This document shows positions 52,702 through 59,307 of a stretch of 64,000 nt of DNA, in pieces. Numbering within the stretch: the stretch's first letter is position 1; every line of letters starts with the position of its first letter. The position numbers and the translations under genes were made by a program. Source of the stretch: Acidobacteriota bacterium (GTDB lineage Bacteria; Acidobacteriota; UBA6911; RPQK01; JAJDTT01); NCBI GenBank assembly GCA_965217775.1, contig CBDCJH010000002.1, positions 4,608,001-4,672,000 of the forward strand, in the 5' to 3' direction. The notes below the pieces were generated by a model. It saw nothing but the letters and a program-made list of their open reading frames with translations, made no database searches and was not told where the DNA came from.

Positions 52702-53199
52702 GGTTCATACTGGGGAATCTCCTTTTTTGGCCTTCACCGATGACCGCCACATCTCCAGTCGGGTCGAGGTTGCTGAGCACCAACTGCACCGACCATCGCC
52801 TCCGTCCAAGTAGTCGGGGAAGACCAAGGTCGTCTCCCCTTCTGAATTCTCCGTCTGGTGTGAGAGGGAGTCGCTGGCGGACCGCCGGGCGTTCTCGGAC
52901 GGCTGAGCAGGCTCTTGCGTCTATGACGAGACCAGCAACAGCAACAATGCCGACGAAGATCCCCAGAATATCTTCATGGCAAGAACTCTTTCGCTACGTT
53001 TGCAGTCGATCCCGTACGGTTCCTAACCACGACCCCGACGGAACCAGTCGATGCTCACATCGCTCGCTTCCCGGCCGCGGTCAGCCTTTGCCCTCAACGA
53101 TCTCCTTTCACAAGTTGGAGTGACGGCAAGTGAGATGCGAAGCATCGTGAAAATAGGAACTAGAGCAGTTTACACAAGTAAAGTGAGATTTCAACCTGG

Positions 53200-53308
53200 G
53201 AGGCTGTCCGAGAACTCGAAAAATCACGATCCAGAAAAAACTATCTCCTTATAAATCAATAACTTAAATCTGTCGATTTGGATGAAAATCGCATTCTCGG
53301 ACAGCCTC
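53200..53308. mobile_element. 109-bp MITE (IS5/IS1182-like ends)
   Basis: TIR GAGGCTGTCCGAGAA / TTCTCGGACAGCCTC; TSD CTGG. Confidence 0.85.
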
Positions 53309-53484
53309 CTGGAATGGTGATATTTGGGTGATTTCTTGCACCAATCCGGGATCCTTGCGACACAGAGGGCTCGGCTTCAGCTCCGGCTCGGGCAGGGACG
53401 AGATGAGCGCCCGGCTGGCCGCCGTAGGGGCCGTCCCTAACCCCAAGTCACCCGCAGAAGCTGGTTCGGGCGTTTTAGGGGCGT

Positions 53485-54166
53485 GGGCGATTTCCAATCG
53501 CTCACGCTCACTCCGGAGGTCGGCGGCTGGAAACCGCCGCTCCTTTTCGGCAGGAGAGGCGATTTCCAGTCGCCCACTCCCCGCATTCCCACACACCGCT
53601 TTCGCTCGCGCTCTCTCCGGAGGTCGGCGGCTGGAAACCGCCGCTCCTTTTCGGCAGGAGGGGCGATTTCCAGTCGCCCACTCCCCGCATTCCCACACAC
53701 CGCTATCGCTCACGCTCACTCCGGAAGTCGGCGGCTGGAAACCGCCGCTCCTTTTCGGCAGGAGGGGCGATTTCCAGTCGCCCACTCCCCGCATTCCCAC
53801 ACACCCGCTATCGCTCGCGCTCACTCCGGAGGTCGGCGGCTGGAAACCGCCGCTCCTTTTCGGCAGGAGGGGCGATTTCCAGTCGCCCACTCCCCGCATT
53901 CCCACACATCGCTATCGCTGGCGCTCTCTCCGGAAGTCGGCGGCTGGAAACCGCCGCTCCTTTTCGGCAGGAGGGGCGATTTCCAGTCGCCCACTCCCCG
54001 CATTCCCACACACTGCTATCGCTCGCGCTCATTCCGGAGGTCGGCGGCTGGAAACCGCCGCTCCTTTTCGGCAGGAGGGGCGATTTCCAGTCGCCCACTC
54101 CCCGCATTCCCACACATCGCTATCGCTGGCGCTCATTCCGGAGGTCGGCGGCTGGAAACCGCCGCT
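53485..54166. repeat. BIME-like REP array, ~6.5 units of 104-105 bp
   Basis: REP-B at 53521, 53625, 53729, 53834, 53938, 54042, 54146 alternating with REP-A. Confidence 0.93.
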
Positions 54167-54185
54167 TGTCTGTTTAAATAGGCCC

Positions 54186-54346
54186 GTCCGGGTCGCTCAT
54201 GAGCGACCCGGACGGCGGTGGCTGGACCGTACCGCCGCGGACCATTACGAACCGTTTGGGAGTGAGGTCGGCCACCGTCTTTCCCGATGTCCTGAATGGA
54301 TACAAGGGCATCAAGGCCCGAATGACAAGCACAGGAGACAGGAAAG
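54186..54346 (+). ncRNA. Predicted bridge RNA of IS110 element 2
   Basis: 5' palindrome; target loop with ACCGCCGC and GGAG; donor loop with ATGGATAC and GACAAG. Confidence 0.82.
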
Positions 54347-55294
54347 ATGAATCAGCATACCGTAGGCATCGACATCTCGAAAGCGCACCTGGACGCGCAC
54401 CGGCTGGCCGACGGCCATTCCGCCCAGTTCGACAATGACCCGGCCGGCTTCCGGGCGCTGATCGATTGGATCGGAACTCCGGTCGAGTGCGTCGTCTACG
54501 AGGCCACCGGCCCCTACCACCGGGACCTCGAGGAAGCGCTGTCCAAAGCGAAGCTGCCGCTGGCGAAGGTGAACCCCTGGCAGGCGCGGCGCTTCGCCGA
54601 GGCGACCGGGAGCCGTGCCAAGACCGACGCCGTAGACGCTCGGAAACTGGCCCAGTTGGCCGCCAGCCTGGATCCGCGCCGGACCCCGGCACCGTCGAAA
54701 ACGCAACGCCGGCTCCAGGAAATGCAGATGGTCCGGGACGGGCTGATGCGCCAGCGCACGGCCACGCTCAACCGCCGCCAACAGCTCCGCGAACCCGTGT
54801 TGAAACAGCAGCACCAGACCCAGATCAACATGTTCGAGCGCCACGTGCGCACCATCGACCGCAAAATGCAGACGCTGATCGCGGCCGACGAGGCGCGGGC
54901 CCGCAAGCTGGAGATCCTCACCTCCATCCCGGGGATCGCGGCCACCACCGCCGCCGGTCTGCTGGCCGAGATGCCCGAGCTGGGCGCCCTCAGCGGCAAG
55001 GCCGCCGCCAGTCTGGCCGGGTTGGCCGCCGTTCCGCGCGAGTCGGGGGCTTGGCAGGGCCGGGCGTTCATCCGGGGCGGACGGGCGCGGGCGCGACGGC
55101 TCCTGTACATGCCGGCGGTGTCCGCCCTGCGCTGGAACCCCGACTTGGCCGAGGTGTACCGGAGGCTGAGAGAGCGCGGCAAGCCCGGCAAGGTGGCCCT
55201 CGTCGCCGTCATGCGCAAGCTCATCGTCCTGGCCAACACCCTCGTCCGGCAGGACCGCACCTGGTTGCCCGTCGCACCCCGCGTGGTCTCCTGA
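54347..55294 (+). CDS. IS110-family recombinase (DEDD)
   Basis: VGIDISK, YEATG, KTDAVDA, SIPGI, GLAAVPRESG. Confidence 0.95.
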   Translation: MNQHTVGIDISKAHLDAHRLADGHSAQFDNDPAGFRALIDWIGTPVECVVYEATGPYHRDLEEALSKAKLPLAKVNPWQARRFAEATGSRAKTDAVDARKLAQLAASLDPRRTPAPSKTQRRLQEMQMVRDGLMRQRTATLNRRQQLREPVLKQQHQTQINMFERHVRTIDRKMQTLIAADEARARKLEILTSIPGIAATTAAGLLAEMPELGALSGKAAASLAGLAAVPRESGAWQGRAFIRGGRARARRLLYMPAVSALRWNPDLAEVYRRLRERGKPGKVALVAVMRKLIVLANTLVRQDRTWLPVAPRVVS

Positions 55295-55713
55295 GCCCAC
55301 GGAGCGACCCGAGGAGGAGAGGGGACGTGTCGGGTCCCCCAAGGAACGTCTGTAGAACTTCCGGTCAGGCCTGGCCGGAAGCTTGCTTACGGCCATGAAA
55401 GCTCTTCACGCCCTGGGGAGCGTCGGGTCACCCGAAGGGGCGCAGCGAAGCGGAGGAGCCGGAGGCTTGACCCGGCGCTCCCCAGGGCGTATCCGGACCT
55501 CCCGGAGGACTGACGTCGACGATCTCAGGCCCCTCGATCCAGTTGATCGGTCCACTCATCGCCCCCTCCACGGCACCCGGCGGATCCAGTCCGATCTCCG
55601 CCTCACCTCCGGCGGAAGAACCCTCCTCCTAACCCTGTGCCCTTTGGACCGGACAGATCACGTACTAACGACACGGGATGGAAAGGGTGCACGACAAAAA
55701 AGTGACGACCGGG

Positions 55714-57005
55714 TCAAGCTGCGGCTTTGGAATTGGCTCGCCATTCCCAGAAGTCCTCAAAACGTCCACTGAGTCGAACGCACCGAAGGGCCATGATCGA
55801 ATTAGCTCCCCGCACACTCCAATGCATCCCGGAACGTTTGAGTCGTGCCCCGATGGCGTTTTTGCATCCGGCTTCCACCACCCCGGTTGAGGTGCAGAGT
55901 CCCTGGGCCTCGAACTGCGCGTAACGCACGATGTCGATGCTCTTGGAAATAGGTGCAGGCCGCTTTTCCCTCCTCGTGGTGAGAGGCCTCGGTGGCGAGG
56001 ACCGACAGGAGGGTCTCGATCCGACCGGCATCGAGTTCCGCGCAACGTTGTTGGGCCCACTCCTGCCCGGACTGGCGGTCGGCATACAGACTCTTCGAGA
56101 GCGTATGGAGTCGCTCTTTGGCGTGAAAACGATCGACAATCTGCACCGCCTCCGGGAAGAGCTCGCCGGAGAGATTCCAGATCCACCTCGCTCCGTCTCC
56201 CAGGACGACTTGCCGTGGCGCTTGCCCAAAACGGCGTCGTTGGCTTTCGCGCTCGACTCGCTCTCGCGAACTCCGAAAGCTGGGGGTCCGTATCCAGGGT
56301 GGCGGCGCTCTCGATGGCCGCGGTGTAGGTGACCGAGTGCGGGTCGCGCTGGGGCCGACCCTGGGCGTCCCGTCGCTCGGCACTCCAGACCGTACAGAGC
56401 TTGGCTTCGCGGGTTCGGGCCGACCCATCAGGCTGTTTGCCCGCCCGCCCCTGCACCTCGGTCGATCGCATCGGCACCCCAGTGCCGTCCAGGCCCAGAT
56501 AGAGCGTCGAGGGCAAAGGGAGCCCCGAGTCGGGCTCCCGGGTCTGGCGTTCATAGCCCGCGACTTGCTCTCCCAGAGCCTGGGCCGACCGCTGCACCTG
56601 TTTGGTGCCCACGTCCACTCCGGCCAACTCCTCCAACAACTGACTGCTTTCCTGAAAGCTGACCATGGAGGCGACCGCCCCCACCATCCGCATCAGGGCG
56701 GGAGACAAGGAACTCCCCTCCAGTCCCAGCGCTCGATCTCGGGGACAGAAGCCATGGCTGCAATCCCCGCAGTGATAGTAGGCGCGCGCCAATCGCATCG
56801 GTCCCAGCACGGTGACGAACTCTTTGGTCCGCCGACCCGCGTAGCGCGCGCTCCCTCCACAGGAGCAGTTGTGGCGGGGAGTGGCGTCGGAATGATCCTG
56901 GTTCAGATGCGTTTCCACCGTCCGGGCCGCCAGCTCGAGGACTTGACGCCGGAGGGCTGTCTCCAGCGCTTCAAAGTCCAGGGCGGCGGCGGCCGCGGGT
57001 CCCAT
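55714..57005 (-). pseudogene. ISKra4 transposase with frameshifts
   Basis: Motifs spread over three frames: YLGLDGTGVP; LGDGARWIW..VDRFHA; GVVEAGCK..RLKRSGMHWS. Confidence 0.85.
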
Positions 57006-57424
57006 CAGGGTCCGGACTTCTCGCTGGATTTCTTGGGCCAGCGTTTTTTGGAGCCCTTTTTTTGGCCCTTCCGGGCCGGAGAGGCGTCCAGCTTAGCCTG
57101 GCAAATCTGCTCGCTGACCTCCACCAACTCCTTCACCAAGCTCCGCAATCGGCGATACTCGCCGATCTGCTCTCGAGTCCGTTGGACGGCCGGCCCCGGG
57201 GGAATGATCTTGGTCACGGTCTTGCCCGCCACGCGACGGGTCAAGGAGAAACTGGGCCCGTGGCCCCGGTCGCCGGGCTGGGCGCAGTGACAGTTGGGCT
57301 TGCCGCAACGGCGGTAACGGGCCACCAGGGACCCGGGCCGGAGATCACCGAGTTCGAGCAAGGCCTGCAGCAACTGCTGGCGACGTCGTTGAAGCTGGGG
57401 CTGAGGGGAAACGCCTGGAGACAT
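57005..57424 (-). CDS. ISKra4-associated ORF (DUF6788-like)
   Basis: RPGSL..YRRCGKPNCHC...GHGP. Confidence 0.85.
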   Translation of the reverse strand: MSPGVSPQPQLQRRRQQLLQALLELGDLRPGSLVARYRRCGKPNCHCAQPGDRGHGPSFSLTRRVAGKTVTKIIPPGPAVQRTREQIGEYRRLRSLVKELVEVSEQICQAKLDASPARKGQKKGSKKRWPKKSSEKSGP

Positions 57425-57596
57425 GGGCACACTCCTCTCTGACAGTTATAGCAACTGACAGACAATCTAAGCCCAATCTCTGACGTTGTCTGGCCTCCAC
57501 CACCAGCATCACTTTCGTGTCGTGCACCCGGATGGAAACACCGATTAGCACCCACCACTTGCAACATGGATACTCCTCTCCTTTCGTTGATTTTGC

Positions 57597-58268
57597 TTGG
57601 TGAACGTTTGGAACTTTGTGTCATGCGACTCAAAGAATCGGCGGCTGGGAAACCGCACCCGCTTCTATCTCGACCCTTATAGGGCCGTTGATGTTCACCA
57701 CAACCGCCTACCCCACTGGCAGCAAGGTGACAAATTCGTCTTCGTGACTTGGCGGCTGGGAGATTCGCTTCCCCAAGCCAAACTGGATCAGTGGCGGGAG
57801 GAGCAGAAGCTCTGGTTGAAACACCATCCTCGACCTTGGAATTCTCAGACAGCGCGACGCTACCGCAATCGTTTCTCCGGACGGATCAACGACTGGTTGG
57901 ATCAAGGCAACGGGTCGTGCGTCCTCAGGGATCCGGCGTTGGCAAAGATCGTGGCTGACTCCTTGCGGCATTTCGATGGCCGGCGTTACGAACTGGAATC
58001 CTTCATCGTGATGCCCAACCACGTCCATGTGCTGTTTCGCCCTCTTGGCTCTAATCGACTCGGGGATATCTTGAGGTCTTGGAAGCTATTTACGGCTCGC
58101 CAGATCAACCAGAAGACCGGAAGGTCGGCCAAGCTCTGGCAGAAAGATTATTGGGACCGGTTGATCAGGCACGAGACACACTTTTTGCAGTGTTTGGAAT
58201 ACATCCGCGAGAACCCGGCGAAAGCCGGGTTGAGAGAAGGGGAGTTTGTATTGTTCGAGAAGGTTTAG
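57597..58268 (+). CDS. rayT: REP-associated tyrosine transposase (RAYT, HUH Y1)
   Basis: LPHW, FVTWRL.DSLP, MPNHVH, WQKDYWDRLIR, YIRENP; REP-flanked; start uncertain. Confidence 0.9.
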   Translation: MVNVWNFVSCDSKNRRLGNRTRFYLDPYRAVDVHHNRLPHWQQGDKFVFVTWRLGDSLPQAKLDQWREEQKLWLKHHPRPWNSQTARRYRNRFSGRINDWLDQGNGSCVLRDPALAKIVADSLRHFDGRRYELESFIVMPNHVHVLFRPLGSNRLGDILRSWKLFTARQINQKTGRSAKLWQKDYWDRLIRHETHFLQCLEYIRENPAKAGLREGEFVLFEKV

Positions 58269-58326
58269 GAGGGGCGATTTCCAGTCGCCCACTCCCCCCA
58301 TTCCCACACACCGCTATCGCTCGCGC

Positions 58327-59307
58327 TCACTCCGGAGGTCGAGCGTCCCTCCCAGTGTAGTTCGTGAAATGGTCCTTCATCTGGGAGCGGGTGAGATGAC
58401 CCGTGTGGATCAGAATGCGGTAGAGAAGGAGGGCCGACTGGCCGGGGTTCAGGGAGAAGTTCAGGGGCGGGGCGCCTTTTTCGAAGTCCGCCCGGCCGAA
58501 AGGGTTGGCGGCGAAGAGGCCGTAGGCGCGGGCGTGCCAGTAGGTGGGATAACGGACGCTGCGAGGATGGTTCATGATGGCCAGGGTCAGATCCTCGCCC
58601 TCGACCGATCCGCGTAAGGCCATCCACGGAGATGGTTTGCCCCAGACGTGCTCCGCCCGCTCGAGACCTTCGGCGTTGAGGTAGCGGCCGGTGCGGTCCT
58701 CGCGCAGATCGGAGGCGACGCGGATGGCCAGCAAACCCTCCTCGATGTCGCCGAAGGTGACCGGCTCCTCTTGGGCGGTGAGCGTGATCTTCAGGTCGAG
58801 GGTTCGCCATTCGGGTCCGGTTTGGATGGTCACCCGGGAGGTTTGCTTAAGCAGGACCTTGCCGGTGGGGGCGACCCAGTTGGCGGTGGCGCCCAGGATG
58901 CCTTGCTGCCCTCCTTCCATTCGTGTGAAGCCAGTGTGCCGGATCCTTCCGCTTCCCGGGTTGTCCCCCCGGGGAGGGAACTTGGACCAGAAGTCCACGC
59001 CGTTGACGTTGCGGTAGGTGAGGAAGACGCCTTCGTGTTGCCAATGGTCGGTCTGCTCCCCGGGGATGCCGAACTCCATGGGGAATCCGCGGGTGATCCG
59101 GTGCCCCCCAGGACTGAGCAGGGGATGGAAGATGGGTTTGTGCAGGCCGATACCGTAGTGGTAAGAGGCGAAGAGCGCCTCGCCGGCATAGATGTCCACC
59201 CGCGCCGCGTCGGTCTTGATGATGCGGATCCGGTGAGGAGATTCGGCTGAGGCGGCGGACGGAACGAGCCAGGCGAGCAGCAACGCGGCAGACGTTAAGC
59301 GCCTCAT
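58327..59307 (-). CDS. DUF6807/PmoA-named family secreted protein (not a methane monooxygenase)
   Basis: KPIFHPL, TRGFP, DHWQHEG, WHARAYGLFAANPFG; signal peptide. Confidence 0.82.
   Translation of the reverse strand: MRRLTSAALLLAWLVPSAASAESPHRIRIIKTDAARVDIYAGEALFASYHYGIGLHKPIFHPLLSPGGHRITRGFPMEFGIPGEQTDHWQHEGVFLTYRNVNGVDFWSKFPPRGDNPGSGRIRHTGFTRMEGGQQGILGATANWVAPTGKVLLKQTSRVTIQTGPEWRTLDLKITLTAQEEPVTFGDIEEGLLAIRVASDLREDRTGRYLNAEGLERAEHVWGKPSPWMALRGSVEGEDLTLAIMNHPRSVRYPTYWHARAYGLFAANPFGRADFEKGAPPLNFSLNPGQSALLLYRILIHTGHLTRSQMKDHFTNYTGRDARPPE

Follow-up and report, generated by a model that had tools for sequence, protein, structure and literature searches.

IS621 of Escherichia coli inserts in repetitive extragenic palindromic sequences (REPs). 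This insertion sequence (IS) measures 1,279 bp and encodes a recombinase of 326 amino acids (aa), and an IS110 element of 843 bp with a 201-aa protein has already been described. The left guides of the IS621 bridge RNA pair with the bottom strand (and are read as the top strand), and the right guides pair with the top strand; every guide includes the core, and in the wild type, whose natural target ATCAGGCCTAC is 11 bp long, only 4 bp of the right target are paired, as reported by Durrant et al. (PMC11208160), who also cite work on REPs as IS targets. According to Hiraizumi et al. (PMC11208158), each right guide is followed on its 3′ side by a handshake guide, which pairs with the non-cognate DNA at position 7, the catalytic residues are D11, E60, D102, D105 and S241-G242, and a promoter is rebuilt where the ends are joined. 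Here, we describe an IS110-family element in a stretch of 64,000 nucleotides (the window) from an Acidobacteriota bacterium (assembly GCA_965217775.1, contig CBDCJH010000002.1, positions 4,608,001 to 4,672,000). Judged from its sequence, the element is very probably an IS621-like, RNA-guided member of the family, the left end of which encodes a bridge RNA aimed at the host REP and at the element's own joined ends.

The element resembles IS621 in the architecture of its recombinase, which combines a RuvC-like DEDD domain with a Tnp domain bearing the catalytic Ser-Gly, in the CT core, in the order of the predicted left-end bridge RNA (5′ hairpin, target loop, donor loop), in left guides that are sense and right guides that are antisense with the core in each, in a right target of which only 4 bp, core included, are naturally paired, and in handshake positions 3′ of the right guides; a promoter rebuilt at the joined ends may be a further common trait, here as a consensus match. 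In contrast, the two proteins are distant in sequence (110.5 bits, E 8.8e-31), the donor is ATGGATA-CT-TGTCT and the target ACCGCCG-CT-CC instead of ATCAGGCCTAC, the host is an Acidobacteriota bacterium instead of Escherichia coli, and a passenger-free element of 1,554 bp with a 315-aa protein stands against 1,279 bp and 326 aa. Next to these sizes and to the 843-bp element mentioned above, the label of a compact orthologue, given in the original prediction made from this sequence, is unwarranted. By description, ISPpu10 and ISPpu9 of Pseudomonas putida likewise insert right next to the GC-rich hairpin of an intergenic repeat, and this hairpin has been reported to act as a second determinant of specificity for ISPpu10. 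Expanded cargo-bearing IS110 elements (Hu et al. 2026 preprint) exceed the canonical size and move as a unit, as the longer copies described here most likely do; unlike their cargo of plasmid DNA or adaptive genes, the cargo here is a broken IS (1,845 bp).

Recombinase, element ends and genomic copies

The 315-aa protein matches the NCBIfam model NF033542 ('IS110 family RNA-guided transposase') with 205.5 bits against a cut-off of 140, as well as the Pfam domains DEDD_Tnp_IS110 (PF01548; 79.9 bits, cut-off 29, 2.3e-22) and Transposase_20 (PF02371; 67.6 bits, cut-off 21.3, 1.3e-18). Its best solved relative is the ISCro4 transposase (PDB 9t56; 123 bits, E 1.4e-34, residues 3–299), which shares the catalytic motifs, a likeness that concerns the protein chain only; with IS621 included, the alignments to PDB relatives cover residues 3/4–299. 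The motifs GIDISK, YEATG, KTDAVDA and RESGA carry the residues at the catalytic positions, and D9, E52, D94, D97 and S233-G234 align opposite IS621 D11, E60, D102, D105 and S241-G242, respectively. The open reading frame (ORF) is intact in all four copies of the element found in this genome, with 0–5 differences.

Reading the sequence from 53900 to 57800 places the left junction at ACCGCCG-CT/TGTCT, with TGTCT at 54167–54171, and the right junction at ATGGATA-CT/CCTCT (Table 1). The search of the window's own genome returned four near-identical copies (A to D, A being the copy in the window), which are 98–99% alike and are separated by 28–30 positions. Each of them starts with CT followed by TGTCTGTTTAAAT and finishes with CAACATGGATA-CT, and the CT core is present at both junctions of all four without a longer target duplication. 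The targets are ACCGCCG-CT-CCTCT for copy A (3,408 bp), ACCGCCG-CT-CCACG for copy B (3,410 bp), GCCGCCG-CT-CCCAT for copy C (1,554 bp) and GTCGCCG-CT-CCCAA for copy D (1,553 bp), A and B being longer because another IS of 1,845 bp lies in their right end. A genome of the same genus contains at least 13 full-length left ends of the element. The original prediction had placed an IS110 element at 54150–57585, in a REP end with many further target copies in the window. The element is indeed present, and the remaining three copies all lie at REP sites rather than at unrelated sites, but the nested ISKra4-like IS inside this interval had been overlooked. The abundance of targets also stood: the 11-mer ACCGCCGCTCC has 20 occurrences in the window and, genome-wide, 152 where base composition predicts about 12.6, and GTCGCCGCTCC is found 60 times in the genome.

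The REP hairpin at the left junction closes a tandem array, and this array stops exactly at the insertion point. Past CC, the right flank departs from the REP continuation, reading CCTCT here compared with CCTTTTC in the array units. In a same-genus genome, the orthologous site is empty and reads ACCGCCG-CT-CCTTTCGTTGATTTTGC (CT-CCTTTCG).

Bridge-RNA region and guide words

A structured left-end region of about 150–165 nt (roughly 54184–54340) lies upstream of the recombinase gene. Its palindrome consists of arms of 16+16 nt that are 100% complementary and have no spacer. The minimum free energy (MFE) of the fold of 54180–54346 is -83.6 kcal/mol (z = -5.9), with none of 200 shuffles equally stable, and in the MFE structure the 5′ hairpin is followed by two modules, of which the first is a hairpin and the second contains an 11/12-nt internal loop. 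For the structure alignment, 14 distinct left ends were aligned with MAFFT, which misaligns the register of the hypervariable target-loop part and of the alphaproteobacterial 5′ hairpin, and the consensus calculated by RNAalifold contains 28 pairs in six helices with 96.1% of cells paired. Compensatory changes affecting both sides were observed at 11 of the 28 consensus pairs, a number that none of 500 shuffles reached; in a control in which the partners were slid by 1–3 columns, only 0–3 pairs were changed on both sides. G-U pairs are seen in the given strand only, which fits an RNA transcribed from that strand. The 3′ arm of the donor module, CAGGA (54332–54336), overlaps the AGGAG preceding the recombinase start codon, so that the fold may also mask the ribosome-binding site of the recombinase.

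The guides in the window follow the IS621 strand rules, with ACCGCCG plus C and ATGGATA plus C on the left, and the reverse complements of CT plus CC and of CT plus TGTC on the right. When the 180-nt left end was shuffled 200,000 times by mononucleotides, single words were found in 1,101 (ACCGCCGC), 375 (ATGGATAC), 11,263 (GACAAG) and 151,643 (GGAG) cases; because no shuffle held all four words together, we do not attribute their joint match to chance. In copies C and D, the left-target guide is altered to GTCGCCGC, and their sites are the REP variants GCCGCCG-CT and GTCGCCG-CT. These two target-loop variants at corresponding REP variants are what comes closest, in nature, to a sign of reprogrammable targeting.

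Protein relatives gave 65 loci, with identities of 85–94% in Acidobacteriota metagenome-assembled genomes (MAGs), 64–67% in the gammaproteobacterial genus Candidatus (Ca.) Foliamicus and 37–44% in an alphaproteobacterial MAG. For the guide test, 72 sequences were parsed (eight copies from the own genome and 64 loci), and both ends were found in 41 of them, the remaining sequences being truncated, interrupted or missed by the anchors; copies F and H were scored against an internal left-end duplicate, and their true outer flank is that of E and G. All 41 elements show a 7-nt match to the left donor and a match of the core and at least 4 nt to the right donor. For the right target, the core and at least 2 nt are matched in 39 of the 41, and an uninterrupted left-target match of at least 7 nt plus the core C was found in 28. 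The left-target classes ACCGCCG, GTCGCCG, ACCGACG, GCCCTCG (Foliamicus) and TTCGTGT (Alphaproteobacteria) are each mirrored in the loop, with a best left-target match between different lineage groups of at most 5 nt. The guide likewise tracks the right-target classes CC/CCCA, CACG and CCCTC, with CACG opposite CGUGAG in the alphaproteobacterial elements, and the right donors TGTC, TGTA and TATCT stand opposite GACAAG, TACAAG and AGATAAG, respectively. Exceptions to the guide match are L037, L038 and several alphaproteobacterial copies, which are located at diverged sites. In the target loop, the handshake base directly after the right target guide is U in 14 of 14 left ends, with A at donor position 7; in the donor loop, the corresponding base after the right donor guide is C in elements with G at target position 7 and A in those with T there, as in the alphaproteobacterial relatives. 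The second handshake base is not consistently complementary.

These results bear on several further claims of the original prediction. The four guide words lie exactly where they had been read (54231–54238, 54259–54262, 54296–54303 and 54324–54329), and the assignment to an IS621-type bridge-RNA layout is backed by the family model, the catalytic residues, the compensatory fold and the strand and core rules of the guides. The perfect palindrome, given as 28 bp at 54186–54213, is real but extends to 32 bp at 54184–54215. The programming of the guides against the REP stands for the seven left-target positions with the core and for the core with CC; the right target beyond CC is unguided and differs between copies.

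Table 1. Positions of the IS110-family element, its predicted bridge RNA and adjoining features, numbered from the first nucleotide of the window.
Feature	Positions	Strand	Remarks
Tandem REP array, resembling bacterial interspersed mosaic elements; 104-bp unit, 6.4 units	53497..54166	+	Every unit with target ACCGCCG-CT-CC; IS in the last unit
REP hairpin CGGCGG-CTGGAAA-CCGCCG	54146..54164	+	3′ arm is the left target (LT, ACCGCCG, 54158–54164)
Left CT core	54165..54166	+	Identical junction in 4/4 copies
IS110-family element with nested IS and right CT core	54167..57574	+	3,408 bp; 1,553–1,554 bp in passenger-free copies
TTAAAT, -10-like hexamer	54174..54179	+	Partner -35 TTGCAA (57559–57564), 17-nt spacer, only in the circle form
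5′ stem-loop of predicted bridge RNA	54184..54215	+	Perfect 32-bp palindrome; helix 1 with compensatory change in 4/7 pairs
Target-binding loop module	54216..54277	+	Outer stem 54216–54221/54272–54277 and 54225–54228/54266–54269
Left target guide ACCGCCGC	54231..54238	+	Same sense as LT plus core C
Right target guide GGGAG	54258..54262	+	GGAG (54259–54262) is the reverse complement of core CT plus CC
UG, handshake-guide position of target loop	54263..54264	+	U can pair with donor position 7 (A)
Donor-binding loop module	54290..54336	+	Outer stem 54290–54294/54332–54336, inner stem 54306–54309/54316–54319
Left donor guide ATGGATAC	54296..54303	+	Sense match to ATGGATA plus C
Right donor guide GACAAG	54324..54329	+	Reverse complement of CT plus TGTC; covaries with right donor in relatives
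CA, handshake-guide position of donor loop	54330..54331	+	C can pair with target position 7 (G)
IS110-family RNA-guided recombinase, 315 aa	54347..55294	+	D9, E52, D94, D97, S233-G234
9-bp duplication GGATGGAAA	55676–55684 and 57530–57538		Flanks the nested IS
Nested ISKra4-like IS, 1,845 bp	55685..57529	-	Imperfect terminal inverted repeats; in right end of the IS110 element
DUF6788 ORF of nested IS	57430–57005	-	
Right end of the element	57559..57574	+	-35-like TTGCAA 57559–57564, left donor ATGGATA 57566–57572, right CT core 57573–57574
Right target CCTCT	57575..57579	+	Guide matches CC only

Junction promoter, expression and proposed mechanism

Scripted joining of the ends brings TTGCAA and TTAAAT together with a spacing of 17 nt, a consensus match only (8 of 12 positions), and the likely start from this candidate promoter lies at the base of the 5′ hairpin. 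In the Ca. Foliamicus relatives, the same place is occupied by TTGACA-18 nt-TTGAAT or TGTAAT (10–11 of 12 positions), and the alphaproteobacterial element shows no clear equivalent of the junction promoter. In the integrated copy, the promoter scanner found no sigma-70-like site, which mirrors the description of IS621. The expression data consist of contigs from 4 of 24 public runs (X1, X5, X6 and X18), which give no ends, strand or level. In sponge-metagenome and other runs, contigs from RNA libraries span part of the left end (54206–54286) and the gene, a weak indication since DNA is a possible source. The highest word depths in X18 belong to two 81-nt contigs over 54206–54286 (954 and 810), compared with 293 for the contig 54257–54559 and 64.9 at 54820–55281, but these depths, which may sum relatives or DNA, are only a hint. 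Among the contig joints listed, none skips the whole IS. Joints that 'go back' from 57576 to 53937/8 were considered as circles and rejected, as they represent REP flanks of other copies.

By analogy with IS621, we propose that (i) the element would excise or copy out as a circle; (ii) the joined ends would build the promoter TTGCAA-17 nt-TTAAAT, from which the bridge RNA would be transcribed starting at about 54184; (iii) a recombinase tetramer would hold the bridge RNA; (iv) the donor loop would pair with the circle junction; and (v) strand exchange would take place at the CT core. Transposition activity of the element is inferred.

Nested passenger and neighbouring gene

The transposase of the nested ISKra4-like IS matches NF033572 in two frames, neither of which reaches the cut-off of 205 (102.7 and 84.9 bits), which indicates that the transposase gene is split. 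Genome-wide, this IS is represented by five copies, four of them full and one partial. In copies A and B of the IS110 element, the passenger sits at the identical point with the same 9-bp duplication, although these copies occupy different REPs, and a passenger-free joint from 55675 to 57530 was found in contigs of three runs. Since A and B share the passenger and its insertion point at different REPs, the 3.4-kb composite of IS110 element and passenger most likely moved as one unit. As its further copies in the genome imply, the ISKra4-like IS is or was active, but neither its separate insertion into both elements nor gene conversion is a likely origin of the two composites: beyond the shared insertion point and duplication, A and B differ at only 28 of 3,410 aligned positions, and their outer flanks are unrelated apart from the REP.

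On the right, the element adjoins a gene (57597–58268, + strand) for a Y1 transposase resembling REP-associated tyrosine transposases (RAYTs), with a match to NF047646 of 78.3 bits (cut-off 80) and REP-like hairpins on both sides of the gene. In another same-genus genome, an IS110 copy (L088) is likewise located just upstream of the homologous gene.

Target-loop variants, a sister family and solo left ends

Of the 30 differences between copies A and C (1,518 positions compared), 13 fall within the 36-nt target-loop interval 54228–54263; the variant target loop compared with this interval of the window is that of the copy at G000:C2:1161165-1162669. Conversely, copy C and the element at L029 differ at 276 of 1,555 aligned positions (about 82% alike overall), with only one difference in the target-loop interval. 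The accumulation of differences in the target loop on the one hand, and the near-identical loop in the diverged L029 element on the other, look like cassette exchange and suggest that target-loop cassettes have been exchanged between lineages. In one related Acidobacteriota MAG (L021–L036), at least four target-loop variants occur on near-identical backbones, with the right guides GTATGGGAG, GTTTGGGAG, GAAAAGGAG and GAAAAGCAG and the left guides ACCGCCGC or ACCGACGC; the ACCGACG variant in this MAG is located at non-REP ACCGACG-CT sites.

The genome of the window also contains a sister IS110 family of four copies (G000:C2:3135315, 5760330, 1656751 and 6039725; loci L005–L008) with about 66–67% DNA identity and identical ends and donor words. 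Its target loop reads GTATGC...GGGAGGGAG, and all four copies are inserted at CGGTATG-CT-CCCTC in the centre of a repeat of about 200 bp that resembles a miniature inverted-repeat transposable element (MITE). The left half of this repeat gave 248 BLAST hits, many with an empty site. The left end of the sister family is about 500 nt long, and its start is duplicated in tandem (72 bp) in two of the four copies.

One solo left end (G000:C2:5910889-5910971; L113/L009) runs from the normal left junction to GTGTCGCCG-CT, the DNA coding for the left target guide, and then continues as a REP right half, CCCGTTCGGCGG. In a second solo left end, from a same-genus genome (L102), the break lies within 2 nt of the guide-coding CT, and in a third truncated left end (L105) the interruption comes from another insertion instead. 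Since the left target and the core recur in this guide-coding DNA, its recombination with the right junction would give a solo-left-end scar of this kind. Half-match and partial excision have been reported for IS110 elements, including in the preprint by Hu et al. (2026); discussion of guide-coding DNA as an excision site was not found in those parts of the IS110 literature that were examined. We tentatively hypothesise that natural retargeting occurs by swapping of whole target-loop cassettes between lineages while the donor loop is kept, and that guide-coding DNA can act as a pseudo-target, its recombination with the right junction removing the remainder of the element and leaving solo scars, a combined reading that we regard as possible but rather less than probable. 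The cassette-swap part is based on the presence of the ACCGCCG loop, the GTCGCCG loop and the MITE-directed sister loop in one genome.

Close relatives with the left donor ATGGATA are present in Ca. Foliamicus MAGs and, with dozens of copies, in one alphaproteobacterial MAG (L037–L083). Together with the sponge-metagenome labels on some of the runs that contain this stretch of DNA, these relatives hint at a spread of the element across phyla within one habitat.

Discussion

Several observations weigh against an RNA-guided, REP-directed element. None of the four copies shows a right-target match past CC; in A and B, the right guide reads CTCCCAAAC, compared with the flanks CCTCT and CCACG. Copy C has one left-target mismatch (GCCGCCG vs the guide GTCGCCG), and in L028 and L031 the guide fails to match the right target at its first base. 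Across the lineages, no consistent alignment was obtained for the inner stem of the target loop, this stretch being hypervariable. A scan of 53000–58500 against Rfam 15 (E <= 1) returned five chance-level miRNA, sRNA and lncRNA matches and no bridge-RNA family, hence no curated model for comparison. The RNA libraries provide contigs only, without RNA 5′ or 3′ ends or strand, and may hold DNA, and no circle joint from 57574 to 54167 is present among the contig joints listed. Finally, compared with the empty site, the window has five extra bases after the core (CCTCT, 57575–57579). These could be a tandem CTCCT duplication or a result of lineage divergence, as identity in this part is 82%. A different element end was considered for these bases and dropped, since all four copies finish with ATGGATA-CT. 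CT-CCTCTCC also follows another copy in a relative (L024).

Some of these points, namely the lack of a circle junction among the listed joints and the weak right-target matches in all four copies, would also fit a genuine IS110 element that has become an inactive relic in this host, its guides still legible but its transposition lost. The right end of the window copy, interrupted by another IS, and the integrated state without a sigma-70-like promoter point in the same direction. Nevertheless, we consider a relic improbable, because the copies differ by only 28–30 positions and retain an intact 315-aa ORF in all four cases, the composite with the passenger is found at two different REPs and would thus have moved after the nested insertion, a same-genus genome holds at least 13 full-length left ends, and RNA-library contigs cover the left end and the gene. 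That the left-end words match the flanks without any RNA guide, as DNA sites of the transposase or as sequence copied from the target, is formally conceivable, as the DNA that encodes the left target guide necessarily repeats the left target itself, but it is highly improbable given that the flanking helices are kept by compensatory changes and by G-U pairs valid only in the transcript of this strand, that the IS621 strand rule (left sense, right antisense, core in each) holds in four lineages, that the protein matches the model of an RNA-guided family, and that the handshake base changes from C to A exactly where target position 7 changes from G to T.

An IS621-like bridge RNA that addresses the host REP and the joined ends of the element therefore remains our preferred reading. 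The element adds a new member to a well-described family and leaves the known mechanism unchanged, and it or its relatives may already be among the natural IS110 guide-target pairs tabulated by Durrant et al. It represents a readable, multi-copy natural bridge-RNA system from a little-studied phylum, in an apparently sponge-associated Acidobacteriota bacterium. It constitutes a natural experiment in which a single genome pairs one donor loop with three or more target loops, and it provides ready orthologue and guide pairs for studies of specificity and off-target effects. Follow-up would also profit from the natural target-loop variants, the several right-target-guide variants in a same-genus genome, the MITE-directed sister family, the passenger IS carried along and the possible scars of self-targeting.

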